From assembly GCA_965220745.1 (NCBI GenBank), contig CBDCQT010000010.1:608001-672000 (forward strand): a DNA stretch of 64,000 bases, written 5' to 3'. The stretch is from Alphaproteobacteria bacterium. Its GTDB lineage: Bacteria > Pseudomonadota > Alphaproteobacteria > UBA828. Of this stretch, positions 1,574 to 44,733 are shown one piece after another (the stretch's first letter is position 1; each line of letters opens with the position of its first letter). The notes beneath the pieces were generated by a model. That model was not told the origin of the DNA. It saw nothing but the letters and a program-made list of their open reading frames with translations, and did not search any database. A program made the position numbers and the translations under genes.

Positions 1574-2557
1574 TCAGCCTGCGCCGATCTCCTCGATGGC
1601 GTCGGGTGCTTCGCAAAGCGCATCGAGCGCGGCGCGGGCCTCCTGCGCCTCGCGCACGCTGACGGCGCGGAAGCGGAAGATGTCGCCGGGCCGCGCCTGA
1701 CCGGGCCTCCACAGCGAGCCGGTCGGCACCGTGTAGGGGTTGATGAAGCCGCCGAGGGTGAGGCCGTCCGGCCCAAGGACGATGGGCGTCTGGCCGCAGA
1801 GGTTGATCGAGCCGAGGCCATAGCCGTGCTCGATGATGTTGGAGGGGTGCGTGCCGTTCTCCGGCGACTTGTCGTAGGCGCGGCGGGTGAAGGTCCACTC
1901 CGGCCCTTCGAGGCGCACGCCCACCCGGTTGCTGTGGGCGGAGACGCGCCAGTCATGCGTCAGGAAGCGGGCATGGCCGGCCTCGTCGATCCAGTCCTCC
2001 CTGGGCCCAGGCACCGCTTCGACCGACCAGACCCGGCCCTCGGGGAAGCGCGGCCGGGCGTGGGCCGCGGCCCGCCGCCCTGGTGTACCGTCTCCGGCAC
2101 CGAGGGCCAGATGCTGCCCGGCCTTGAGCGGCTCTCCTCCGGCGCCGCCGATTTGCCCGAGGCGATAGGTCGCGCGGGAGCCGAGGAAGGGCGGCACGTC
2201 GATACCGCCGGAGACCGCGAGATAGGCGCGGGCGCCGCGCGTGGCCGAGCCGAGTGCCACGGTCTGCCCGGCACGCACCGCGACGCTGGTCCAGCCCTCG
2301 AAGGGCTCGTCGTCGAGCGCCGCGGGCATCTCGGCGCCGCAGACCGCGACCACGCGGTCGTCGCGGAAACGCAGGGTGGGGCCGATAAACTGGCACTCGA
2401 GCCCCGCGGCGCTGGCGTCGTTGCCCACCAGGCGATTGGCGATGCGGAAGGACCAGCCGTCCATCGGGCCCGAGATCGGGTAGCCGGTGCTGACCATGCC
2501 GACGCGGCCCGGATAGTCCTGAACCGTGGTCTCCAGGCCGGGTTTCAGCACCTCCAT
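1574..2557 (-). CDS. Biotin-dependent carboxyltransferase family protein (PxpC / allophanate hydrolase subunit 2-like)
   Basis: TTVQDYPGR, SGPMD, ANRLVGN, RAYLAVSGG, SNRVGVRL and PDGLTLGG motifs. Confidence 0.9.
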   Translation of the reverse strand: MEVLKPGLETTVQDYPGRVGMVSTGYPISGPMDGWSFRIANRLVGNDASAAGLECQFIGPTLRFRDDRVVAVCGAEMPAALDDEPFEGWTSVAVRAGQTVALGSATRGARAYLAVSGGIDVPPFLGSRATYRLGQIGGAGGEPLKAGQHLALGAGDGTPGRRAAAHARPRFPEGRVWSVEAVPGPREDWIDEAGHARFLTHDWRVSAHSNRVGVRLEGPEWTFTRRAYDKSPENGTHPSNIIEHGYGLGSINLCGQTPIVLGPDGLTLGGFINPYTVPTGSLWRPGQARPGDIFRFRAVSVREAQEARAALDALCEAPDAIEEIGAG

Positions 2558-2571
2558 GACGGGCGTCGCGC

Positions 2572-3447
2572 TCAGTGCCTCTGCTCCGCGTCGAGCGTCG
2601 CCACCCAGGCCTCGTAGGCGGATAGGGAGAAGCGCTGATACTCGACGATGTTGAAGGGGTAGGTTCCTTCCGCCAGCTTCGCCTCGATGCGGTCGTATTC
2701 GCTGCGGTCAATGGGATCGAACTTGATGCGATCGCCGACGCGGAGCAGTGCGATGCCGCCGCCGAAGGCCGGGATGCGTCCCTCCGGGTCCAGCATCGGG
2801 AGCGGCGTGCGGCCGATCATGTTGAAGCCGCCGGGCGAGTGCAGGGTCTGGATCGCGCTCTGGCCGCCGGCGCAGACCACCGCGCCTTGGGGCGTCCACA
2901 TGCGGGGCGGGTCGTACTTGGGCGCGTAGATGATGCAGCGCGGGTCGAGCGGGCGCATGAGCGGCAGGCCGGGATAGGCGCCGATGATGCCGATCCAGTA
3001 CTCGGTCGCCGAATGGAGCGCAACCAGCTCGTCGAGGCCGGAGAGCCCGTTCTCCGCCACGATGAACTCGGGGTCGTAGGGCCGCTCCTTGATGGTGCGG
3101 TGGTACTCCTCCATGCAGGCGCGGGTCCAGGGGTCGAGGTAGAGGGTGGGCACGTGGACCAGCCGGCTCTCGATTTCGTCGGGCGTGCCCACCGCGTCGG
3201 CCAGCGCCAGCGCCTCGCGCACCAGGTCGTCATAGGCGATGCGCTGCCAGTCGTACTCGATGAGCACGGAGTTGAAGCCGGGATTGGTCTCGATCACGCC
3301 GGGAATGCGGGCCTCGTCCACGGCCTTGGCGAAGCCGCGGGCCTGCAGGTTGAGCCTGAGCCCGCCGTCGTCGCCGAATTCGATCAGAACGAAGCGGTCG
3401 CCGTTGGGCGCGACCAGGGGCTCCTCGTACTTCATGCCGCGCATCAT
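2572..3447 (-). CDS. Carboxyltransferase domain protein (PxpB / allophanate hydrolase subunit 1-like)
   Basis: GDRFVLIEFG, YLDPWT, PKYDPPRMWTP, SPGGFNMIGRTP; start may be 3435 instead. Confidence 0.88.
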   Translation of the reverse strand: MMRGMKYEEPLVAPNGDRFVLIEFGDDGGLRLNLQARGFAKAVDEARIPGVIETNPGFNSVLIEYDWQRIAYDDLVREALALADAVGTPDEIESRLVHVPTLYLDPWTRACMEEYHRTIKERPYDPEFIVAENGLSGLDELVALHSATEYWIGIIGAYPGLPLMRPLDPRCIIYAPKYDPPRMWTPQGAVVCAGGQSAIQTLHSPGGFNMIGRTPLPMLDPEGRIPAFGGGIALLRVGDRIKFDPIDRSEYDRIEAKLAEGTYPFNIVEYQRFSLSAYEAWVATLDAEQRH

Positions 3448-3531
3448 AGCGGACGATTCGCCGTTGGCGCGGGGCGGGGAGCGGCGTAAGCATGGGCGCG
3501 CGGCGCGAGCGCGCGGAATGGAGGCACTCGT

Positions 3532-3993
3532 ATGGCGGAAGAGCCGTCGGCGCCTGATACGGCGGAGCAGTGGCAATACCAGCTTCGCGTCGATCTGGCG
3601 GAGGACGCTGCTGAAGCGGCGCGGGCCGGTGGGGAGCATGCGGGGCTCGGGCCCTTGCGGGAGATTCTCGCCACCCACGATGCGCGGCTCATCTGCCAGT
3701 ACGACGCCTTTGCCGGCTATTGCGCGGAGGCCGAGGAGCACGGCATCGAGCACTACCCGCTCTACGCCTGGACCAAGGCGGTGATCGCCGACCCGGCCAA
3801 GCAGGCGAAATACGTCAAGTCGTTCTCGATCCATGTGGGCGGGGCGGAGGTCTACGACAAGGACAAGGCGGACGCGCTGGAAGCAGCGCTCGCGCCGCTG
3901 GTGGGCGCCGGCGTGGTGGCCCGGCTCGCCAAGCACGATACCAATCCAGCCAACAGCCCGCAGATGCCGGAGAAATACCGCTCCGGATCGTAA
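3532..3993 (+). CDS. Hypothetical protein, 153 aa
   Basis: GGAGG RBS before ATG, host-like codon usage, globular composition; fills the gap between flanking genes. Confidence 0.8.
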   Translation: MAEEPSAPDTAEQWQYQLRVDLAEDAAEAARAGGEHAGLGPLREILATHDARLICQYDAFAGYCAEAEEHGIEHYPLYAWTKAVIADPAKQAKYVKSFSIHVGGAEVYDKDKADALEAALAPLVGAGVVARLAKHDTNPANSPQMPEKYRSGS

Positions 3994-3999
3994 GAGGAC

Positions 4000-4518
4000 T
4001 TAGCCGCTGCCGGCGGCGAGTTTTTCGCGCAGGTAGGGGATCAGGCCGCCGGCCTGCAGCATGCCGCGCTCCGCGGTGGAATAAGGCGCGATGGGGAGCG
4101 TGCCGCCCCGGCTCAGATTGCGGACCTGGGCCCCCTCCCAGTCGATTTCGATCTCGTCCCAGCGCCGGACCAGGCCGGTGATGCCGGGGCAGGCGATCTG
4201 CGGGAAGCCCTCGGCGATCTCCTCTCGCCAGTAGCCGGTGGCGAAGGAGTCCGCGATCACGGCGCGGACGCCCAGGTGGCGCAGCCCGATCATCGGCGCG
4301 AAGTGGGGATGGCCGTAGCCGAAGTTCTCGGCACCGACGACCACGTCGCCGGGCGCGACCTTCTCGGCGAAACCGGGGTCGAAGCGGCGCATGGCGCACG
4401 CCGCGAGCGCATCCGGGTCGGTGAGGCGGATGTTCTCGACGCCCACGATCTGGTCCACGTCGAAATCCGCTTCCTCGAAGACGTAGGCGACGCGGCCGCG
4501 AAGGGGCGCGAGGCTCAT
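4000..4518 (-). CDS. LeuD-like aconitase-family small subunit (non-canonical)
   Basis: DVDQI, GDVVVGAENFGYG, GVRAVIADSFA, GGLIPY; overlaps the large subunit stop. Confidence 0.85.
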   Translation of the reverse strand: MSLAPLRGRVAYVFEEADFDVDQIVGVENIRLTDPDALAACAMRRFDPGFAEKVAPGDVVVGAENFGYGHPHFAPMIGLRHLGVRAVIADSFATGYWREEIAEGFPQIACPGITGLVRRWDEIEIDWEGAQVRNLSRGGTLPIAPYSTAERGMLQAGGLIPYLREKLAAGSG

Positions 4519-15785: not shown

Positions 15786-16732
15786 GCCCTCCCTCCCGCG
15801 ACCCGCACCCTGGCGCGCCCGTCTGCCGAGGCCGCCACCAGGGCCGCGGCCCGATGGACGCTCGTATGCCGGCGCGCAAGGCGGTCCAGATCGTCGGCAT
15901 AGCCGCCACCCACCACGCAGGCGGTCGGCACATCGGCCTCGCGGCAGGTCTCGATCACGTAGCGGTCGCGCCTGGCGAGGCCGCCGTCGCCAAGCGCGAG
16001 CCGGCCGAGCTTGTCCTCCACATGGGGATCGACGCCGGCATTGTAGAACACGATGTCCGGCCGATGGTCCGCGAGCAGTGCCGGCAGGTGGGTCGCCAGC
16101 ACCGAATGATAGACGTCATCGCCGGTGCCGGGCGGGACGCCGATGTCGAGATCGCTGGTCTCCTTCGAGGGCGGATAGTTGGCCTCGCAGTGGAGCGAGA
16201 AGGTGAAGACCTCCGGCTCGCTCTGGAAGATCGCCGCCGTGCCGTCGCCCTGATGGACGTCGAGATCCACCACCAGCGCCCGCTCGATCAGCCCTTCGGA
16301 ACGCAGCACGCGGATTGCGACGGCGACATCGTTGAAGAGGCAGAAGCCGGCACCGTGATCGGCAAAGGCATGGTGGCTGCCCCCCGCCGTGTTGCAGGCG
16401 AGCCCGTGCTCCAGCGCGAGGCGGCCGGTGAGCACGGTCCCGCCCACCGCGGCGCGACCGCGGCGGACCAGGGCGTCGGAGAGCGGCAGCCCGAGCCGGC
16501 GGATGGCGCGGCGGTCGAGCGCGAGGGTCAGCACAGCGTCGACGTAGGCCTCGTCATGCGCGAGCGTCAGCCACCCCCGAGACGCGGGCGTTGGCTCTAC
16601 GAGGTTCGCCGGCGCAATCACGCCGTCCTCCAGCAGCACGTCCTTGATCCGGCCGAACTTCCCGATGGGGAAGCGATGGCCGGGCGGCAGCGGAACCGTG
16701 TAATCGGGGTGAAAGACGACCGGAAGGGTCAC
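15782..16732 (-). CDS. Histone deacetylase family protein
   Basis: [31 protein letters not shown]. Confidence 0.92.
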
Positions 16733-35373: not shown

Positions 35374-36567
35374 TCAGAAGACGATCGAGGCGGCCTTGGT
35401 CGGACGGAACACACCGATGGCGCTGTGCTTGCCGTCTTGCACCTGCATGATCGTCATCGGCCGGGTCACGCTCATGTGAAGCTCCGGCGTATAGGTCGTC
35501 GCCCCGACCAGGGAGGGCTCGTCGGTATAGCTCTCCAGCACCTCGCGCACCGCATCACCGTCCAGCGACCCGGCCTTCTCGACGGCCTGAGCCCAAGTCT
35601 CGATGGCGGCGTAGCCGGTGTACATCTGGCCGGTGGCGGGCGGGCCGCCATGCATCTCGATGAACTTATCGAGCACCTCGTTGATTTCCGGGCGCGGGTC
35701 GTCGCCGAAGATCGAGCCGTAGATCGCGTAGTAGAGGCCGCTCAAGTTCGGCACCGCGTCGAGCCAGTAATTGCCGCCCATCCCCTCGCCGCTGAGCATC
35801 GGGATGTTCACACCGGCGGCACGCAGCTGCTTGAGGGCAGCCGCGCCACCAGGGGGATAGGAGCAGTACATGATCGCATCAGGCTGCGGATCGAGCGCCT
35901 TCAGCCGCGTGATCTGGGAGGCGATGGACGGATCGTTGTTCTGGAACGTGTCCTCGCCGAGGAATGAGTCCTCGCCCGCGATCTCGATCCATCGCTCCTT
36001 GAACGAGCGGCACAGGGACACGTCGAATTCCACGGTCGGGTCGACCAGCATGTAGGCGGTGCGATAGCCTTGGTTGTTGTATCCCCACTCCGCCATGAGG
36101 GCGCCCTGGCCGGGTGTGCCGATCGACATGGTGAAGGCGTATGGCCCAATGCCCTGCACGCCGAACTTGGGATCGGCGGCACAGCTCGAGAACGCGATGA
36201 TGCCGCGCGCATTGGCGACCGACGCGGCACCGCCGCCGAAGTCGTAGTCGCAGGTCACCAGCACCATCTGCGCGCCCTGGTCGAGCACCTCGAGGCCGGC
36301 GTTGGCGCCGTGGGCGATGTCCGACTTCGTATCGGCGAAGACCATCTCGATCTGACGGCCAAGCACGCCGCCCCGCTCGTTGATGACCTTGACGGCAAGC
36401 TGGGCCGCCTTCTGCGGGCCGTCATCGTAGGGTGCGACGAATCCGCTCAACGCAACGGCGGCGCCGATGACGATCGGATCTTCGTCTGCGGTGGCCTGGT
36501 GGCTGAAGCCCAATGATGCCGCCGCGACCAATCCGAGTGCGACGCAAGGCACTCTCATCATTTTCAT
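35374..36567 (-). CDS. ABC substrate-binding protein (Liv/leucine-binding family)
   Basis: Signal peptide, INERGGVLGRQIE, DTKSD; GGAGG RBS. Confidence 0.88.
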   Translation of the reverse strand: MKMMRVPCVALGLVAAASLGFSHQATADEDPIVIGAAVALSGFVAPYDDGPQKAAQLAVKVINERGGVLGRQIEMVFADTKSDIAHGANAGLEVLDQGAQMVLVTCDYDFGGGAASVANARGIIAFSSCAADPKFGVQGIGPYAFTMSIGTPGQGALMAEWGYNNQGYRTAYMLVDPTVEFDVSLCRSFKERWIEIAGEDSFLGEDTFQNNDPSIASQITRLKALDPQPDAIMYCSYPPGGAAALKQLRAAGVNIPMLSGEGMGGNYWLDAVPNLSGLYYAIYGSIFGDDPRPEINEVLDKFIEMHGGPPATGQMYTGYAAIETWAQAVEKAGSLDGDAVREVLESYTDEPSLVGATTYTPELHMSVTRPMTIMQVQDGKHSAIGVFRPTKAASIVF

Positions 36568-36732
36568 GTGAATGACCTCCCCGTTCTTCATTGTTGCAGC
36601 GACGCATCGAGAATCCGCTGCTCTCCCGTGAGGCAACCATGCATATCAAGCGAGGACCGTGTCAACGCCGCCCCTGCCCAGGCGGGCTCCGCGCCGAGCC
36701 CGGTGGCACGCGCCGCCTGCCAAGCCCAAACC

Positions 36733-36768
36733 TTCACCTTTTGGACGCGATGTGCTATAAAAGGTGAA
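36733..36768. promoter_or_regulatory. 10-bp inverted repeat enclosing an extended -10-like element upstream of the KamA-family gene
   Basis: TTCACCTTTT-16nt-AAAAGGTGAA with TGCTATAAA overlapping the right arm. Confidence 0.5.
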
Positions 36769-36806
36769 AGAGTAATAAAACCTAATGACCCTAAGGAGAC
36801 GCAACA

Positions 36807-38204
36807 GTGAATATTGATACGATCCCGGGGTCGGCGGCTCTTCGAGAAGGGCCGGGCGCGAACCGTCTTCGTGATCTGAAAGTCGTCGCGCCACCGGACG
36901 GCAAATTCAAGGCGCTGACCCGGAGAAATCTCGATTCGATTTCTCAGTACGGTAACGTGACCGATGACGACTTGTTCGACATGAAAGTCGTCAGCGCCGT
37001 GCTGCCGTTCCGCACCAACCGCTATGTGATCGAGCACCTGATCGATTGGGACCGGATCCCGGACGATCCGGTCTACCGGCTGGTGTTCCCGCAGCGGGGA
37101 ATGCTGGAAGGCGGCGACTTTAGCCGGATCGCCGATCTCATGACCCGCGACGCCACGCCGCAGGAAGTCGAGGGGGCGGCCGCCGACATTCGCGCGCGCC
37201 TCAATCCACATCCGGCCGGGCAACGCGAGCTCAACATTCCGCAGGAAGAAGGCGAGACTCTGGAAGGACTCCAGCACAAGTATCGCGAGACAATGCTGTT
37301 CTTCCCGAGCCAGGGTCAGACCTGTCACGCCTACTGCACCTTCTGCTTCCGCTGGGCGCAATTCGTGGGCGATAAGGAGCTGAAGATCGCGTCAAAGGAT
37401 GCGGTCAACATGCACCGTTATCTCGCCGACCATCCCAACATCTCGGACGTACTGTTCACCGGCGGCGACCCGATGATCATGAAGACCCGGGTGATGGAGG
37501 GCTATCTCCGGGCCTTCATCGACGATCCGGCGCTGGCCCACGTGCAGAACATCCGGATCGGCACCAAGGCGCTCACCTTCTGGCCGCATCGCTTCGTCCA
37601 CGACGAGGATGCGGACGATCTGCTGCGCCTGTTCGAGGATCTCGTCGTTGCGGGCCGTCACATCGCGATCATGGCCCACTTCAATCACTGGCAGGAGCTC
37701 AGGACCGACGTGGTGCAGGACGCGATCCGCCGCATCCGCGATACCGGCGCGGTGATCCGCGCCCAGGCGCCGCTGCTCGCCAACATCAACAACGACTCCG
37801 ACATCTGGGCCCAGATGTGGCGCGAGCAGGTGCGCCTCGGCGTCATCCCCTACTACATGTTCGTAGAGCGCGACACCGGCCCGCGGCACTACTTCGAAGT
37901 GCCGCTGGAGCGCTGCTGGGAAGTCTTCCGGGGCGCGATCGAGCAGGTCTCGGGGCTGGCGCGGACGGTCCGGGGCCCGAGCATGAGCGCGACGCCAGGC
38001 AAGGTCGAAGTTCTGGGCGTGCAGGAGGTCGCGGGCGAGAAGGTCTTCGTGCTGCGCTTCCTGCAAGGGCGCGATCCCGACTGGGTCGGGCGGCCGTTCT
38101 TCGCGCGCTACGATCCCAAGGCGACCTGGCTCGACCAGCTCGAACCCGCCTTCGGCGAAGAGGCCTTCTTCTTCGAGGACGGCTTGAAGGCACTGACCGC
38201 ATAA
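36807..38204 (+). CDS. KamA-family radical SAM / PLP aminomutase (lysine 2,3-aminomutase-like)
   Basis: GLQHKY, CHAYCTFCFR, FTGGDP, HFNH, PYYMF. Confidence 0.88.
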   Translation: MNIDTIPGSAALREGPGANRLRDLKVVAPPDGKFKALTRRNLDSISQYGNVTDDDLFDMKVVSAVLPFRTNRYVIEHLIDWDRIPDDPVYRLVFPQRGMLEGGDFSRIADLMTRDATPQEVEGAAADIRARLNPHPAGQRELNIPQEEGETLEGLQHKYRETMLFFPSQGQTCHAYCTFCFRWAQFVGDKELKIASKDAVNMHRYLADHPNISDVLFTGGDPMIMKTRVMEGYLRAFIDDPALAHVQNIRIGTKALTFWPHRFVHDEDADDLLRLFEDLVVAGRHIAIMAHFNHWQELRTDVVQDAIRRIRDTGAVIRAQAPLLANINNDSDIWAQMWREQVRLGVIPYYMFVERDTGPRHYFEVPLERCWEVFRGAIEQVSGLARTVRGPSMSATPGKVEVLGVQEVAGEKVFVLRFLQGRDPDWVGRPFFARYDPKATWLDQLEPAFGEEAFFFEDGLKALTA

Positions 38205-38330
38205 GCCGGGCGCCGGCAGCGGTACGCCGGCGCACCCGATTACGCCGACCTCCAACGCTGCAGCGTTGCGCGGCAGGCGGCCCTGCGCCACCTTGGGTCT
38301 GCCCCGAATCGTGCGGGAGTCGGCCGCGCC

Positions 38331-39209
38331 ATGCTGCGTATCGTCCTCGCGGACAATCTGGAGGTCCTGCGCACGCTCGAAGCAGCCAGCTTCGACCTGA
38401 TCTATATCGACCCGCCCTTCAATACCGGCCGCACCCAGACGCGGGTCGCGCTCAGGACCGAGCGTGACGAGGCCGGCGACAGGACCGGCTTTCAAGGTCA
38501 GCGCTATCGGACCACGACGCTCGGTGCCACCGGCTATGCGGACAGCTTCGACGACTACCTGGCCTTCCTCGAGCCTCGCTTGATCGAGGCCCACCGGGTG
38601 CTGGCCGCGAGCGGCTCGCTTTTCTTTCACAGTGATTGCCGCGAGGTGCACTACTGCAAAGTGCTGCTCGACGGCATCTTCGGGCGCGAGAGCTTCATCA
38701 ACGAGATTATCTGGGCCTACGATTACGGCGGACGGCCCAAGAATCGCTGGCCGGCCAAGCACGACACCATCCTCTGGTACGCAAAGGACCCGGCGCACTA
38801 CACCTTCAACTTCGACGAGATTGACCGCATCCCCTACATGGCGCCGGCGCTGGTGGGGGCCGAGAAAGCCGCGCGCGGAAAGACGCCGACGGATGTCTGG
38901 TGGCACACCATCGTGCCCACCACGGGCAAGGAGAAGACCGGTTACGCCACCCAGAAGCCGCTCGGGCTGCTGGAGCGCATCGTCAAGGTGCACTCATCGC
39001 CGGGCGACAGGTTGCTGGATTTCTTCGCAGGCTCCGGCACCTTCGGCGAAGCCGCCGCCCTCCACGGCCGCTCGTGCCTCCTCGTCGACAACAACCCCGA
39101 GGCGGTGCGGATTATGAGCCGGCGATTGGTGCGTTTTGGCCCGAAAGTAGAGGGGGTGGAGGCAGATTACGACGCGTCTGCCATGCTCCGGCGCGACCTG
39201 CCGTTTTGA
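38331..39209 (+). CDS. Beta-class amino (m6A/m4C) DNA methyltransferase
   Basis: DPPF precedes TQKP and DFFAGSGT. Confidence 0.92.
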   Translation: MLRIVLADNLEVLRTLEAASFDLIYIDPPFNTGRTQTRVALRTERDEAGDRTGFQGQRYRTTTLGATGYADSFDDYLAFLEPRLIEAHRVLAASGSLFFHSDCREVHYCKVLLDGIFGRESFINEIIWAYDYGGRPKNRWPAKHDTILWYAKDPAHYTFNFDEIDRIPYMAPALVGAEKAARGKTPTDVWWHTIVPTTGKEKTGYATQKPLGLLERIVKVHSSPGDRLLDFFAGSGTFGEAAALHGRSCLLVDNNPEAVRIMSRRLVRFGPKVEGVEADYDASAMLRRDLPF

Positions 39210-39275
39210 AGGACAATGGTTAGGCTGCTACAGTTCGTCGCTCCAGCCCAATCGAGCTTGACCACCTGAGGCAAC

Positions 39276-39332
39276 TAGACCATCACTCCTACATATAGTA
39301 GAATTACGAAATTTATGTACAAGGTGTAGCGT
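39276..39332 (+). promoter_or_regulatory. sigma70 promoter overlapped by tandem NrdR-box-like motifs
   Basis: TAGACC-17nt-TAGAAT (39276-39304); boxes ctcCTACATATAGtag (39286-39301) and gtaCAAGGTGTAGcgt (39317-39332), 31 bp apart. Confidence 0.6.
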
Positions 39333-40830
39333 GACCAACGCACATTCCGATAGCGGGCAACCCCCTCAAGCCCTCGAAAGTGCCAAGGAGAGGGGCGCGT
39401 ATTACACACCCGAGCAAGTTGTGCGCAGCCTTCTCAGCTGGGCCGTCCACAATACCGAAGACCGCCTTCTCGATCCCTCATGTGGAGACGGGCGCTTCAT
39501 CGCCGGTCACCTCAAAAGCGTCGGGATTGAGCAGGATCCAAATGCCAGTGCGACCGCGATGGAGCGTGCACCGGGCGCTCTCATCCATGAAGGCGACTTC
39601 TTCGCCTGGGCGAGCAGCACCGAAGAGCGCTTTGAGTGTGCTGCTGGCAACCCACCCTTTATTCGTTATCAGCGCTTCAAGGGCGCCACACGCACGCGCG
39701 CGATCGACCTTTGCGACACGCTCGGCGCCCGCTTTTCCGGCTTGTCGTCATCCTGGCCGTTGTTCCTGGTTGCGACTGCCCATCTTCTTAACCGAGGCGG
39801 GCGCATGGCCTTTGTCGTACCAGCTGAAGTGGGCCATGCACCATATAGTGCGCCTCTAATTGAGTATCTAGCGCAAAACTTTTCTTTCCTTCAGATCGTT
39901 GCAGTAAGAAGTAAAATCTTCCCACATTTGTCGGAAGATTGTTGGCTGCTTTATGCGGGCGAGAAGGGCGGATCGACCAAGGAGATATGCTTCAGCATCT
40001 TGGATGGATTCTATTTCTGCGACAAACCGCCCCCGGTAAATGTGCGTGTTGCGTTGAGCGCTTGGCGCTCCATCTGGAATTCGCGGTTGCGCCCATTCCT
40101 TATGCCGAAGTCAGCTCGTGACCTTTACGAACGCGTGGCGCATGAACATGACTGCTTGCGACTAGGCGCAATCGCGCAAATCAATATTGGGTACATCTCA
40201 GGAGCCAACGACTTTTTCCATCTGCGCCTTTCTGAGGCGCAAGACTTGGGGATTCCAAGCACCTGTTTGCAAACGACAGTTCGCAACGGCCGCGCTCTTC
40301 CGTCGAATCGGCTCGACGAAACGACAGTGGAGAGGTGGTTACGCGAGGATCGTCAGACCCTGTTACTCCGGCTACGAAAAAATCAAGAGCTTCCCGATCC
40401 AGTCCGTGCTTACTTACAAACTACGCGGGCAAAGGAGGTATCGAGTGGATATAAGTGCCGAACGCGCAATCCCTGGTATGTTGTACCGGACGTTAAGATT
40501 CCAGATTATTTTTTAAGTTACATGTCGGGACGGGAAGTTTTGCTCGTTCAGAACGCAGCAGGCTGTGCCTGCACGAACTCGCTGCATACAGTTCGACTCA
40601 GGAATAAAGCGGCACAGACCCATATTCGAGTGGCTCAAAAGTCGCCATTATTCCAGCTGAGCTGTGAAATCGAGGGACATCCCTTGGGTGGTGGAATGCT
40701 GAAATTAGAGCCGCGAGAGGCATGTAATGTCCTAGTACCAGATTTTGCCGCACTTTCCAGAGGAGATACGAGCATCGTAGAGGACGGGATCACCGCCCTC
40801 CAGGCATGGAGACACTATGCCCCAGCTTGA
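39331..40830 (+). CDS. Gamma-class N6-adenine DNA methyltransferase of a putative type II R-M system
   Basis: GAYYTP, LLDPSCGDG, GNPPF, C-terminal TRD ending GGGMLKLEP; lower GC than flanks. Confidence 0.9.
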   Translation: MTNAHSDSGQPPQALESAKERGAYYTPEQVVRSLLSWAVHNTEDRLLDPSCGDGRFIAGHLKSVGIEQDPNASATAMERAPGALIHEGDFFAWASSTEERFECAAGNPPFIRYQRFKGATRTRAIDLCDTLGARFSGLSSSWPLFLVATAHLLNRGGRMAFVVPAEVGHAPYSAPLIEYLAQNFSFLQIVAVRSKIFPHLSEDCWLLYAGEKGGSTKEICFSILDGFYFCDKPPPVNVRVALSAWRSIWNSRLRPFLMPKSARDLYERVAHEHDCLRLGAIAQINIGYISGANDFFHLRLSEAQDLGIPSTCLQTTVRNGRALPSNRLDETTVERWLREDRQTLLLRLRKNQELPDPVRAYLQTTRAKEVSSGYKCRTRNPWYVVPDVKIPDYFLSYMSGREVLLVQNAAGCACTNSLHTVRLRNKAAQTHIRVAQKSPLFQLSCEIEGHPLGGGMLKLEPREACNVLVPDFAALSRGDTSIVEDGITALQAWRHYAPA

Positions 40831-41731
40831 AGGTTTCACCGCAGACGATTGGAAGTCTTGTCATTGGCTTGGTACGGAAGAAACTTTCCGTCATCTTGCT
40901 ACATCGAGAGAGCGAACACAAAGTCAGAAGATCGTCAAGCCTCTGCATTGGTACATCGCGTGCCGACTGGTTCTAGAAGGCGGCTTTCTTCCCGATGACA
41001 TCAAGCCTCGTCCTCCCTTCAAAGCGGTTAAGAAGGGCAACCGGTGGTCGCTGAGTTTCGATCAAACAGAAGCTGGCGGCGGCGAAGCTACTGTCCTCGG
41101 TGGCCTCAAGACGAAGGACGTAGATATCGTTGTGGACAAGCCAGGGATTGGCCCGGTCATCGCGATCTCTTGCAAGAGTACTGGTAACGCATTCCGCAAT
41201 CTTACTAACCGAATGGAAGAAGCGGTCGGCGAATGCACGAATTTGCACATGACTTATTCGGCGCTTGTGATTGGATACTATTCAGTGTTTAGAGCGCATC
41301 GCGCGGGTAGCGACCCAGAGTTAGAGGATAACGATGTAGCTCTTCAGGCAGATGGCAATCCTGTTGACGGGATCATCCGATACCACGAGGCGTTTCGCCA
41401 ACTCGAGGGGCGCACGGACCTCAGAGATACTATCAGCAAATACGAAGCTGTGAGCCTCTCTTTGCTCGAGACCAAAGGTCCTAATGTTGGTGAGCTCTTC
41501 GATTCCTTCCCTCCGAAGGGCAGCCCGTTGCGTTCGGAGAATTTTTTCAACAAGATTTACCGTCGCTACGACGAGCGGTTTGTGTTCGCAGCTCCAATCT
41601 TTGCCACACGCAAAATTACACCCAGAATTGAATGGGATGCAGACTCACCGCTCTTCACCGCGAATTTGGGATTGATAATCGGCGAAGCGCCCGAACTCGA
41701 CTATGAACCGCGCAAATCCTTGCAAGCGTAG
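40817..41731 (+). CDS. Putative type II restriction endonuclease, PD-(D/E)xK fold
   Basis: Overlaps the MTase by 14 nt; KDVDIVV...AISCKS...NLTNRMEEAVG resembles the XhoI/PaeR7I-type core; low GC. Confidence 0.65.
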   Translation: MPQLEGFTADDWKSCHWLGTEETFRHLATSRERTQSQKIVKPLHWYIACRLVLEGGFLPDDIKPRPPFKAVKKGNRWSLSFDQTEAGGGEATVLGGLKTKDVDIVVDKPGIGPVIAISCKSTGNAFRNLTNRMEEAVGECTNLHMTYSALVIGYYSVFRAHRAGSDPELEDNDVALQADGNPVDGIIRYHEAFRQLEGRTDLRDTISKYEAVSLSLLETKGPNVGELFDSFPPKGSPLRSENFFNKIYRRYDERFVFAAPIFATRKITPRIEWDADSPLFTANLGLIIGEAPELDYEPRKSLQA

Positions 41732-41958
41732 AGAGGCCTGAGGAGCCCAACAGACTGGCGAGCAAGCCCTATCTTGCCGACTCCCCGGACGATGGTGCGG
41801 TGCAGGGGGTGAGGCGCTTGGGTCAGGATCGCCGCATGGACTGAGGGAGCGAACAGGTTGGCGCAGGCCGAGGACGGCTGAGCGCGCGGTCGTCGCTTGT
41901 GCGTTCAGGGTCACTTATCAGGGCCCGCGACCCATGCCCTCTACGCCCGCGACCTTCC

Positions 41959-42033
41959 CAGGCTCGGGCGACTCAGGCGTGCGCGACTCAGGCGCGGGCG
42001 ACATCCCGCCTAATCCCGGCTTGTCCCGCCTCA
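41959..42033. repeat. Short tandem repeats (3x15 bp followed by 3x10 bp)
   Basis: CAGGCTCGGGCGACT / CAGGCGTGCGCGACT / CAGGCGCGGGCGACA, then TCCCGCCTAA / TCCCGGCTTG / TCCCGCCTCA. Confidence 0.65.
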
Positions 42034-42166
42034 ATAATTTGATGTGCGTCCCACGGGCCAGGCCGAGGCGCCGCCCCCGCCCGCTCCCCACCGCCGCGCG
42101 CCCTTCCGCCGGCGCGGCATCTGCGCCATGATCCCGCGCACACACGCCACGGATGGGGAGAGGGTC

Positions 42167-42931
42167 ATGGCCAAGATACTCGTAATCGTTCCCTTCGCCT
42201 TCGACGAGAAGGGGCTCGCGAACCGGCGCTCGCAGCTGGATTCGGTCTCGTTCGGCCCGGACATCGAGTTCGACTTCCGGGGCGTCAAGGCGGGGCCGGC
42301 GCTGCTCGACTGCTACCACGACTACAGCATGGCCGACATCTCGCTGTTCGAAGCGGGCCTCACGGCCCAGGAGGACGGCTACGACGCCGTCTGCATCGAC
42401 ACCATGAGCGATTCCGGCATGAACGCCATGCGCTCGGTGCTCGACATCCCGGTGATCGGGCCGGGGCGGGCCTCCTACATGATGGCGCTCATGCTCTGCA
42501 ACCGCTTCTCGGTGGTGACCCAGTGGGACGGCTGGATCCCCCTCTACAAGAAGAGCAGCGTGGAATACGGCGTCGCCGACCGCTTGGCCTCCGTCCGCTC
42601 CATCAACGTGATGCCGGATGTCGAGAACCTGCTGGGCGGCAAGGAGGAGGTGGTCTTCCCCAAGCTGGTGGAGTGCTCCACGCGCTGCATCGAGGACGAC
42701 GGCGCCGAGGCGATTCTGCTCGGCTCCACCACCATGCACCAGGCGCACGGCCACATGGCCGAGAACCTGCCGGTGCCGGTCATCAACCCCGGCCCGCTCA
42801 CATACAAGCTCGCCGAATGCGTGCTGGGCCTGGGGCTGAGCCACAGCCGCAAGGCCTATCCCAGCCCGACCGTGCCGAAGCCCGCCATGGTCCACGCCAT
42901 GATGGACGGTGCTGCGACCGTCGCCGACTGA
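42167..42931 (+). CDS. Asp/Glu/hydantoin racemase family protein
   Basis: GYDAVCIDTMSDSG, LDIPVIGP, GAEAILLGSTTM, PVPVINP. Confidence 0.85.
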   Translation: MAKILVIVPFAFDEKGLANRRSQLDSVSFGPDIEFDFRGVKAGPALLDCYHDYSMADISLFEAGLTAQEDGYDAVCIDTMSDSGMNAMRSVLDIPVIGPGRASYMMALMLCNRFSVVTQWDGWIPLYKKSSVEYGVADRLASVRSINVMPDVENLLGGKEEVVFPKLVECSTRCIEDDGAEAILLGSTTMHQAHGHMAENLPVPVINPGPLTYKLAECVLGLGLSHSRKAYPSPTVPKPAMVHAMMDGAATVAD

Positions 42932-42946
42932 CGAGGGGAGAACACC

Positions 42947-43738
42947 ATGGCCGGACGGCTGGCAGGCCGCGTCGCGCTCATCACCGGCGCCGCGAGGGGC
43001 CTCGGCGCTGCAATGGCGCGCGGGATGGCGGCGGAGGGCGCGCCGGTCGCGCTTAGCGACATCGACAAGGAGGGGGGCGAGGCGCTCGCGGCAGAGCTCG
43101 AGGCCGGCGGCGCCGAGACCATGTTCATCACCCTCGACACGACCAGGGAGGCCGATTGGGAGGCCGCGATCCCAGCGGTGATCGATCGCTTCGGCGGCCT
43201 CGACATTCTCGTCAACAACGCGGGCGTCGTCGTCGTCGAGCCGGTCGACGCGATTACGGTGGAAAGCTGGCAGAAGACCATGTCGGTCAACCTCGACGGC
43301 GTCTTCCTCGGCACCAAGCACGGCATGGCCGCGATGCGCGCGGGCGGCTCGATCATCAACATCTCCTCGATCATGGGCTTTACGGCCACGCCAGAGCTCA
43401 CCGCCTATTGCGCGAGCAAGGGGGCGGTCAGGCTCTTCACCAAAGGGGCGGCGCTGGACGGCGCCAAGGACGAACGCCGCATCCGGGTGAATTCGATTCA
43501 TCCCGGCTACATCCATACCGAAATGATGGAGGCCACCTGCTACAGCGAGTACGGCAGCCTCGAAGCGGGCATCGAGGCACTCGCCAAGCGCCACCCCATC
43601 GGGCGCGTGGGCAAGCCGGAGGACATCGCCAACGGCGCGATCTTCCTCGCGTCCGAGGAATCGAGCTTCATCACCGGCACTGAGCTGGTGATCGACGGCG
43701 GCTTCCTGGCGGTGGGCGGCTACGGCGTCCATCCGTAG
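42947..43738 (+). CDS. SDR oxidoreductase, copy 1
   Basis: TGAARGLG, NNAG, YCASK, IHPG. Confidence 0.93.
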   Translation: MAGRLAGRVALITGAARGLGAAMARGMAAEGAPVALSDIDKEGGEALAAELEAGGAETMFITLDTTREADWEAAIPAVIDRFGGLDILVNNAGVVVVEPVDAITVESWQKTMSVNLDGVFLGTKHGMAAMRAGGSIINISSIMGFTATPELTAYCASKGAVRLFTKGAALDGAKDERRIRVNSIHPGYIHTEMMEATCYSEYGSLEAGIEALAKRHPIGRVGKPEDIANGAIFLASEESSFITGTELVIDGGFLAVGGYGVHP

Positions 43739-43790
43739 GCGGAGCAGCGCATAGCCCCTGTCATCATTCTTCAGGGAGATCGAAAAGGAA

Positions 43791-43906
43791 CACCCCCTCC
43801 TCATCTCGGCCTCTCCTCCCCCGCCGGGAGGAGAGGGAGAGAAATCCGGCGCTACCTACGTCCCCCCTCCGCCCTTCCGGGGGGAGGGGGACAGGGGGAG
43901 GTGGGG
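43791..43906. repeat. REP-like double-hairpin palindromic intergenic element
   Basis: CCTCTCCTCCC-ccgcc-GGGAGGAGAGG (43810-43836) and CCCCCTCC.CCC-ttcc-GGG.GGAGGGGG (43863-43890). Confidence 0.65.
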
Positions 43907-43941
43907 CGACCGTCGACAATTGACGAGAGGAGAAGCAGAGA

Positions 43942-44733
43942 ATGGCAGGACGACTGGAAGGCCGCGTCGCGCTCATCACCGGTGCCGGGAGGGGCCTCGG
44001 CGCAGCAATGGCGCGCGGGATGGCGGCGGAGGGCGCGCCGGTCGCGCTCAGCGATATCGATGAGGAAGGCGGCAAGGCGCTCGCAACGGAGCTTGGGGCC
44101 GGCGGCGCCGAGGCCATGTTCATCACCCTGGACACGACCAAGGAGGCCGATTGGGAAGCCGCGATCCCGGCCGTGATCGATCGCTTCGGCGGGCTCGACA
44201 TTCTCGTCAACAACGCGGGCGTCGGCATCGTCGAGCCGCTCGACGTGGTCACGCTGGAAAGCTGGCACAAGACCATGTCGGTCAACGTCGACGGCGTATT
44301 CCTCGGCACTAAGCACGGCATGGCCGCGATGCGCGCGGGCGGTTCGATCATCAACCTTTCCTCGATCCTGGGCTTTACGAGCATTCCGGCTCTCTCGGCC
44401 TACAGCGCGAGCAAGGGGGCAGTCAGACTCTTCACCAAGGCTGCGGCGCTGGACGGCGCCAAGGACGAACGCCGCATCCGGGTGAACTCGATTCACCCCG
44501 GCTACATCCATACCGAGATGATGGAAGCCACCTGCTACCGCGACTACGGCAGCCTGGAAGCGGGGATCGAGGCGCTCGCCAAGCAGCACCCCATCGGGCG
44601 CGTGGGCAAGCCGGAGGACATCGCCAACGGCGCGATCTTCCTCGCCTCGGAAGAGTCGAGCTTCATCACCGGCACGGAGCTTGTGATCGACGGCGGCTAC
44701 CTGGCGGTAGGCGGATACGACGTCCATCCGTAG
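43942..44733 (+). CDS. SDR oxidoreductase, copy 2 (about 89% aa identical to copy 1)
   Basis: TGAGRGLG, NNAG, YSASK; 29 differences in 263 aa by manual count. Confidence 0.93.
   Translation: MAGRLEGRVALITGAGRGLGAAMARGMAAEGAPVALSDIDEEGGKALATELGAGGAEAMFITLDTTKEADWEAAIPAVIDRFGGLDILVNNAGVGIVEPLDVVTLESWHKTMSVNVDGVFLGTKHGMAAMRAGGSIINLSSILGFTSIPALSAYSASKGAVRLFTKAAALDGAKDERRIRVNSIHPGYIHTEMMEATCYRDYGSLEAGIEALAKQHPIGRVGKPEDIANGAIFLASEESSFITGTELVIDGGYLAVGGYDVHP

Follow-up and report, generated by a model that had tools for sequence, protein, structure and literature searches.

A candidate tandem NrdR-type operator on the predicted promoter of an acquired methyltransferase–nuclease operon in an alphaproteobacterial genus

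INTRODUCTION

Can a restriction-modification (R-M) operon that entered a genome by horizontal transfer come under the control of the host's nucleotide-pool sensor? This question is raised by a locus in the 64,000-nucleotide stretch of alphaproteobacterial DNA analyzed here (the window), in which the first-pass annotation pointed out two sequences resembling the boxes of the repressor NrdR on the promoter of a methyltransferase–nuclease gene pair, and proposed that this acquired operon is wired to the host NrdR as a dNTP-sensing anti-phage switch. NrdR is described as a specific repressor of ribonucleotide reductase (RNR) genes (PMC13584703, PMC12051234), and rules for its binding are given in PMC13584703. 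According to that source, C4, A6, A8, T9, T11 and G13 are the conserved box positions, among which C4 and G13 are critical for binding, A6 and T11 are important, and A8 and T9 are dispensable; two boxes are needed, with at least 63% AT within C4–G13 and a linker of 15–16 bp of free sequence. Asp15 and Arg17 of NrdR contact C4 and G13, and tetramers loaded with dATP bind DNA, whereas ATP-only oligomers do not (PMC13584703). NrdR from one species has also been published to bind foreign boxes in vitro.

RESULTS

An acquired operon of an adenine methyltransferase and a putative nuclease

The boxes precede two overlapping genes, which lie together with their promoter region in a segment of low GC content:

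39200..41900, + strand: low-GC inserted cassette comprising the promoter region, the methyltransferase gene and the nuclease gene (about 2.7 kb, edges approximate)
39331..40830, + strand: gamma-class N6-adenine DNA methyltransferase, 499 aa, GTG start (Pfam Eco57I, M_Eco57I_C and N6_Mtase; PADLOC MTase_II, E = 3.8e-84)
40817..41731, + strand: putative restriction endonuclease according to its predicted fold, 304 aa (14-nt overlap with the methyltransferase gene)

The GC content was 0.505–0.56 between about 39200 and 41750, compared with 0.63–0.70 in the flanks. Homology to the window ended at 39109–39182 in 15 relatives, and in one of them (L149) it resumed at 42096 after only about 230 bp. 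Because the homology of the relatives stops upstream of the boxes, the box-bearing promoter region is part of the inserted segment. Judged by the GC dip and the homology break, the operon is horizontally acquired, as the first-pass annotation had claimed. The cassette was present at an identity of at least 80% in three of the 21 genomes of the genus (the window's own, G030 and G034), and the other two species carried it at the same insertion site as the window; the G034 locus (also L007) shares 4.9 kb of syntenic sequence with the window, at 84% identity.

Homologues of the methyltransferase aligned from residue 1, and its translation contains an NPPF motif. The 304-aa protein had no family match in Pfam, NCBIfam, PADLOC or PHROG; its family comprised 2,483 homologues (E ≤ 1e-5), relatives at 76–85% identity exist, and every source name among the 120 listed was 'hypothetical'. 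We name it by the fold predicted in an AlphaFold (AF2) model built from 30 homologues (pLDDT 82.6, pTM 0.86), for which the best structural matches were PD-(D/E)xK nucleases, namely NucC (Z = 8.5), BbvCI (8.1), Kpn2I (7.6) and NgoMIV (6.9). Foldseek alone returned only weak matches (best E = 3.5e-4, TM about 0.2). The residues invariant in the 30 homologues (D103, S118-C119-K120, E134, E135 and E139) suggest what we take to be an active site like that of NgoMIV/Cfr10I. The gene pair is also kept in distant loci, and the DNA homology in L010 and L006 continues through the nuclease gene. The 304-aa protein is probably a restriction endonuclease, an identity that is likely and not firmer because the structural Z values (6.9–8.5) are middling, and the operon is probably a Type II M-R system consisting of an adenine methyltransferase and this putative nuclease.

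Two NrdR-type boxes on the predicted promoter

The elements upstream of the methyltransferase gene are as follows:

39219-39233, + strand: 15-nt element GTTAGGCTGCTACAG, within the cassette and close to its left edge (14/15 columns invariant among the three orthologues; one strain variant at 39231)
39276-39281, + strand: predicted –35 hexamer TAGACC, from direct reading and a promoter scan (5/6 columns invariant among the three orthologues)
39286-39301, no strand: NrdR-type box 1 ctcCTACATATAGtag, in the promoter spacer and reaching 3 nt into the –10 hexamer
39299-39304, + strand: predicted –10 hexamer TAGAAT, from the promoter scan (TAGAAT and TATAAA in the orthologues)
39302-39316, no strand: inter-box linker, 15 bp (9/15 columns variable and zero indels among the three orthologues)
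39317-39332, no strand: NrdR-type box 2 gtaCAAGGTGTAGcgt, covering the RBS AAGGTG (39321-39326) and reaching two bases into the GTG start codon (39331)

The spacer between TAGACC and TAGAAT is 17 nt long and the two hexamers matched at 9 of 12 positions in the promoter scan. The boxes overlap this –35/–10 pair, which is a prediction only, because the number of promoter-like sites in 36000–44500 (3 in 8.5 kb, compared with 1.7 ± 1.1 in shuffles) does not exceed the shuffle expectation and the match alone is accordingly not significant.

Direct reading of the letters gave the promoter and box coordinates that the first-pass annotation had reported, with two 16-bp boxes whose starts are 31 bp apart. 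Its count of core matches was also right when set against the six positions of PMC13584703: box 1 contains all of C4, A6, A8, T9, T11 and G13, and box 2 contains five of them, with G at position 8. C4 and G13 as well as A6 and T11 are present in both boxes. The middle dinucleotide is AT in box 1 and GT in box 2, and GT is absent from the variants listed in PMC13584703. Between C4 and G13, 7 of 8 positions are A or T in box 1 and 5 of 8 in box 2, the latter being exactly the published lower limit. Both boxes conform to the published NrdR rules, box 2 barely so because of its 5/8 AT and its GT centre.

The genome also encodes NrdR itself. In a profile search of the genome contigs, nrdR was detected on contig C5 (TIGR00244, 174 bits against a cut-off of 124.65), and its translation contains the zinc-ribbon cysteines C3, C6, C31 and C34 together with D15 and R17. 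The remark that no nrd gene lies nearby held for the entire contig of the window, which contains no RNR large-subunit gene; the four PF02867 matches in the genome were on contigs C5, C1 and C12.

Conservation of the box core among orthologues

The principal alternative to an NrdR operator is chance resemblance, according to which an AT-rich foreign promoter happens to contain CnAnATnTnG with a weak second match 31 bp away, and ordinary constraints and a short divergence account for what has been kept. The two readings were compared on an alignment of the three orthologous promoters (the window, G030 and G034), which are kin sequences whose columns are not independent events. None of the 12 core columns was variable, compared with 5 of the 8 interleaved degenerate columns (positions 5, 7 and 10 of box 1 and positions 10 and 12 of box 2), 3 of the 12 outer columns and 9 of the 15 linker columns, and no indels were found. 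The invariant core includes the G at position 8 of box 2. For these three related sequences, the difference was significant between core and interleaved degenerate columns (Fisher P = 0.0036) and between core columns and all the rest (P = 0.0018). Because core and degenerate columns alternate base by base, regional conservation cannot give this pattern, which counts against chance resemblance.

When a tandem mask of the core was slid along the intergenic alignment, the true register was the unique best of 90 offsets. Among 3,569 masks combining offsets with spacings of 17–59, only the true register at spacing 31 had 12 of 12 core columns invariant, again speaking against chance. The boxes of the two orthologues scored 14.5 + 7.0 and 13.0 + 9.0 bits, as good as those of the window or better. 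In contigs from four other runs, the differences listed (there were 31 further ones) included variants at positions 2 and 7 of box 1 and at two linker positions, and no core-position variant or indel was among those listed. In the nrdJ pair of the same three genomes, the core was largely fixed and the degenerate positions were variable.

Ordinary constraint does account for some of this, as chance resemblance would have it. Box 2 lies over the RBS and the start codon and box 1 extends over the –10 hexamer, and 57% of the intergenic columns in the three-orthologue alignment are invariant regardless of the boxes. Part of the conservation of box 2 is explained, on this layout, by the RBS and the start codon. 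However, five of the six core positions of box 1 are in the promoter spacer, outside the hexamers, and no constraint from promoter function is known there. The alignment indicates that the core positions of the boxes are selectively conserved, and this evolutionary pattern is the strongest sequence evidence for NrdR-type sites at the R-M promoter.

Matrix scores and chance expectation

We scored the genome with a palindromic 16-bp matrix refined from the consensus on the 260 bp upstream of nrdJ in 30 genomes of the order (the order matrix). Its information was high only at C4, A6, A8, T9, T11 and G13, that is, at the core known from the literature, and its boxes recurred 31–32 bp apart. The first-pass annotation had suggested scoring both sites with a matrix derived from nrd promoters, and the outcome was divided between the two boxes. 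Box 1 reached 12.0 bits, a score as high being found at only 114 of 4.82 million genome positions and exceeding those of the genome's own nrdJ boxes (9.4–11.1 bits), but box 2 reached only 7.0 bits, which was equalled at 2,922 genome positions. By letters and score, box 2 is the weak link of the candidate operator. Pairs scoring at least as high as the R-M pair occurred five times at spacing 31, twice at spacing 30 and at neither 32 nor 33, compared with a genome-wide mean of 0.38 pairs over 102 other spacings. The R-M pair was the weakest of the five pairs at spacing 31; within the 64-kb window it scored 19.0, compared with 9.2 for the next pair. The mean of 0.38 also favors chance resemblance to a degree, being the number of pairs expected per spacing and genome even with the order matrix.

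A second matrix, trained on 11 promoters from other genera only, gave 11.4 bits for box 1, which thus exceeded the genome background by either matrix, and 3.0 bits for box 2, the latter being equalled at 16,000 positions. With this matrix the pair was at background (9 pairs at spacing 31, compared with 6.8 on average and at most 23 elsewhere), and with loose published criteria spacing 31 was not enriched (5 pairs, compared with 0–12 at other spacings); both results are in line with chance resemblance. On the other side, of 20,000 dinucleotide-preserving shuffles of 39210–39345, one contained an equal pair by the order matrix and 21 did so by the loose criteria. Background-level scores, which the first-pass annotation had regarded as evidence against its proposal, were therefore obtained with the other-genera matrix and not with the order matrix. 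The genome-wide significance of the pair depends on the matrix, and the score statistics alone do not settle the identity of the operator.

Wider homologous loci

The pair was also sought in 76 homologous methyltransferase loci from genome and metagenome collections. Conservation in such loci, another expectation of the first-pass annotation, was confined to the genus: the boxes are kept in both orthologues with the pattern of the NrdR mask, but a comparable pair was absent from 74 of the 75 loci other than the window's, and the single exception (L007) is the G034 orthologue. The next-best pairs among the 76 loci scored 18.1 (at spacing 30) and 15.5. No hit of the metagenome scan exceeded 72% identity, no close homologue outside the genus turned up among 401 sampled genomes of the class, and the promoter regions of the relatives at 72–74% identity were unrelated to that of the window. 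Since the pair is no general feature of the R-M family, NrdR-type wiring would be specific to the genus.

The absence from 74 loci is again what chance resemblance would predict. Taking this together with the interleaved conservation, the unique mask register and the single equal shuffle, we consider chance resemblance rather unlikely, though it is the most serious competitor of an NrdR operator.

Other tandem pairs and RNR genes in the genome

The four other spacing-31 pairs found with the order matrix were at nrdJ, at parE, at a pcm–ABC intergenic site and at a second low-GC cassette. The nrdJ pair was found by construction, because the matrix was built from nrdJ promoters. The parE pair was the best of the genome with the order matrix (26.7 bits, spacing 31, C5:326496-326542, L068:2497-2543), and is located about 75 bp upstream of the gene for topoisomerase IV subunit B (TIGR01055, L068:2615-4702). 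Among 30 loci of the order, 19 had a best pair at spacing 31–32 upstream of parE with a summed score of at least 20 bits (18/21 in the genus and 1/9 in other genera), and by this distribution parE is a conserved non-RNR candidate target of NrdR in the genus. Box 1 of the parE pair in this genome also has G at position 8. Because it shows the same deviation as box 2 of the R-M pair, a position-8 G does occur in a conserved site.

Two further RNR large-subunit genes (C5:381986-384406 and C1:9986-12628, with frames of 806 and 880 aa, the C1 copy being on a 20.9-kb contig) had no upstream pair with the order matrix (best sums –4.0 and 0.8). The nrdR gene itself had no upstream pair either, the best sums for nrdR and these two RNR genes being 1.7 or lower. 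The matrix scan also ruled out NrdR boxes upstream of the second C5 RNR gene, which had been a candidate. Because two RNR genes and nrdR have no pair, the matrix does not simply track nucleotide genes.

At the pcm–ABC site (C10:16820-16866, L070:2521-2567), NrdR-like boxes flanked by genes for a pcm-like methyltransferase and an ABC ATPase were found in 17 of 18 loci of the genus. Their spacing varies from 30 to 33 among these loci, a misfit with the rule of a 15–16 bp linker, and the boxes may belong to another regulator. The ORFs downstream of this pair, initially taken as unknown genes, were rejected in favor of the real genes on the opposite strand, which encode the ABC ATPase and an alcohol dehydrogenase; because these two genes are on the other strand, the pair is upstream of the pcm-like gene. 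A cobalamin riboswitch beside the pair was likewise rejected, since Rfam gave no match at the gathering score in L068–L070. In positions 36000–44000 of the window, Rfam gave a single, chance-level match (E = 0.96).

The pair at the second low-GC cassette (C11:341544-341590, L069:2545-2591) scored 24.3 or 26.2 bits with the two matrices, which makes it one of the two best-scoring NrdR-type pairs in the genome, and it is located at the 5΄ edge of the islet. This islet (L069, about 2450–4050, with 44–58% GC compared with about 70% in the flanks) contains three ORFs. Their products are a 196-aa protein from a rare family, for which 20 homologues were found, a protein that weakly matches a family of phage transcriptional regulators (E = 6.5e-4), and a protein of 140 aa. 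In G043, the one relative with the islet, a single box of the pair remains. A conserved palindrome, ATTGAC..GTCAAT, follows immediately downstream.

DISCUSSION

The pattern of conservation, the canonical spacing and the presence of nrdR suggest that the boxes are a genuine NrdR operator tying the acquired R-M operon to the state of DNA synthesis, to which we assign a probability of roughly 0.6. The wiring to the host NrdR proposed in the first-pass annotation thus gains from the nrdR gene and from the genus-level conservation of the core, and loses from the weakness of box 2 and from the background-level result with the other-genera matrix.

What we infer for the R-M boxes is binding by NrdR, the sign and size of its effect, the start of transcription and their physiological role. 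Accumulation of dATP, for example when DNA synthesis has halted, would give an NrdR tetramer loaded with ATP and dATP, which would occupy both boxes and bend the DNA. With box 1 at about –25 to –10 and box 2 at about +7 to +22 relative to the predicted start, such binding would be expected to keep RNA polymerase off the promoter. At a low ratio of dATP to ATP, as in active replication or under any drain on dNTPs, NrdR would form non-binding oligomers, and the released operon would be transcribed together with nrdJ and parE, at a high level during DNA synthesis and at a low level when dATP accumulates. This direction of regulation is the one put forward in the first-pass annotation, and it agrees with the dATP/ATP mechanism published in PMC13584703. 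The most economical purpose would be to couple the supply of methyltransferase and nuclease to DNA synthesis, when new DNA is made, and induction during phage replication would then be a corollary. Because strong induction of the S. pneumoniae NrdR regulon by lytic phage is reported in PMC6755750, induction of the R-M operon during infection is plausible, but to read the R-M operator as an 'anti-phage switch' is speculative.

The candidate operator resembles the NrdR sites of RNR operons (nrdAB, nrdHIEF and nrdDG of E. coli; nrdAB and nrdRJ of S. coelicolor) in its two partially palindromic 16-bp boxes with C4, A6, T11 and G13, its AT-rich centre, its non-conserved 15-bp linker and its overlap with the RNA polymerase site, which is predicted here (PMC13584703). 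It differs from them in preceding methyltransferase and nuclease genes on an acquired cassette instead of RNR genes, and in the GT centre of box 2, which is at the published lower AT limit. Non-RNR candidates for NrdR control have been reported elsewhere: topA of P. aeruginosa, which has a single box and is doubted for that reason (PMC12051234), and a two-gene operon of S. pneumoniae with an NrdR site, which lytic phage induces (PMC6755750). Neither of these is an R-M system, whereas the R-M promoter described here has both boxes at the canonical spacing. The parE site of the genus is alike in genome, matrix, 31-bp spacing and the G at position 8 of one box; it differs in belonging to a core gene and being kept in 18 of 21 genus loci, whereas the R-M site is found only in the three of 21 genomes that carry the cassette. 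In a literature search judged by titles and abstract openings, we found no link between NrdR and an R-M promoter and no control of phage defense by NrdR.

Type II R-M operons are commonly self-regulated. In systems autoregulated by a C protein or by the HTH of the methyltransferase, the operator of the repressor overlaps the R-M promoter and limits expression of the nuclease. The present site resembles these in being an operator on an R-M promoter (predicted here), but no controller-type gene or HTH was found in the cassette, whose five small ORFs had no Pfam match at E = 0.05, and the candidate repressor is a housekeeping dATP/ATP sensor of the host that does not belong to the R-M system. An operator for another factor, either the methyltransferase itself at a target-like site or a host regulator with a similar half-palindromic motif, is improbable: the habit of self-regulation in such operons and the conserved GTTAGGCTGCTACAG element 55 bp upstream of the boxes speak for it, whereas the lack of a controller among the small ORFs, the start of the catalytic region of the methyltransferase at residue 14, which therefore leaves no space for an N-terminal HTH, and the exact coincidence of the conserved columns with the published NrdR core and spacing speak against it.

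If the boxes are an NrdR operator, a canonical two-box site that purifying selection maintains at an R-M promoter, together with the parE site, would mean that the NrdR regulon can be expanded to DNA-handling genes, and it would provide a concrete, testable tie between nucleotide-pool sensing and the control of a defence system. The non-RNR nature of the downstream genes is the new point, which bears on membership of the NrdR regulon and not on binding. A broader version, in which NrdR has been recruited in this sponge-associated, Rhodospirillales-like genus as a sensor of DNA synthesis for parE and for acquired cassettes (the R-M operon and the C11 islet), with restriction inducible by a fall in dATP arising from replication or phage, strikes us as doubtful, and somewhat more so than the chance origin weighed above.

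Several features of the surroundings of the cassette were also recorded. The gene immediately upstream (38331-39209) encodes a beta-class N6/N4 methyltransferase, apparently without a nuclease partner, and is a core gene of the genus (18/21 genomes). The region just downstream of this gene differs among genomes (L136–L157), and the site may be an insertion hotspot. G034 contains about 1.2 kb more than the window after the nuclease gene. Further upstream (36807-38204) is a gene for a KamA-family radical SAM aminomutase-like protein (TIGR00238, 130 bits, under its cut-off), and this protein is 97% identical between the window and G034, compared with 80% for the adjoining R-M genes.
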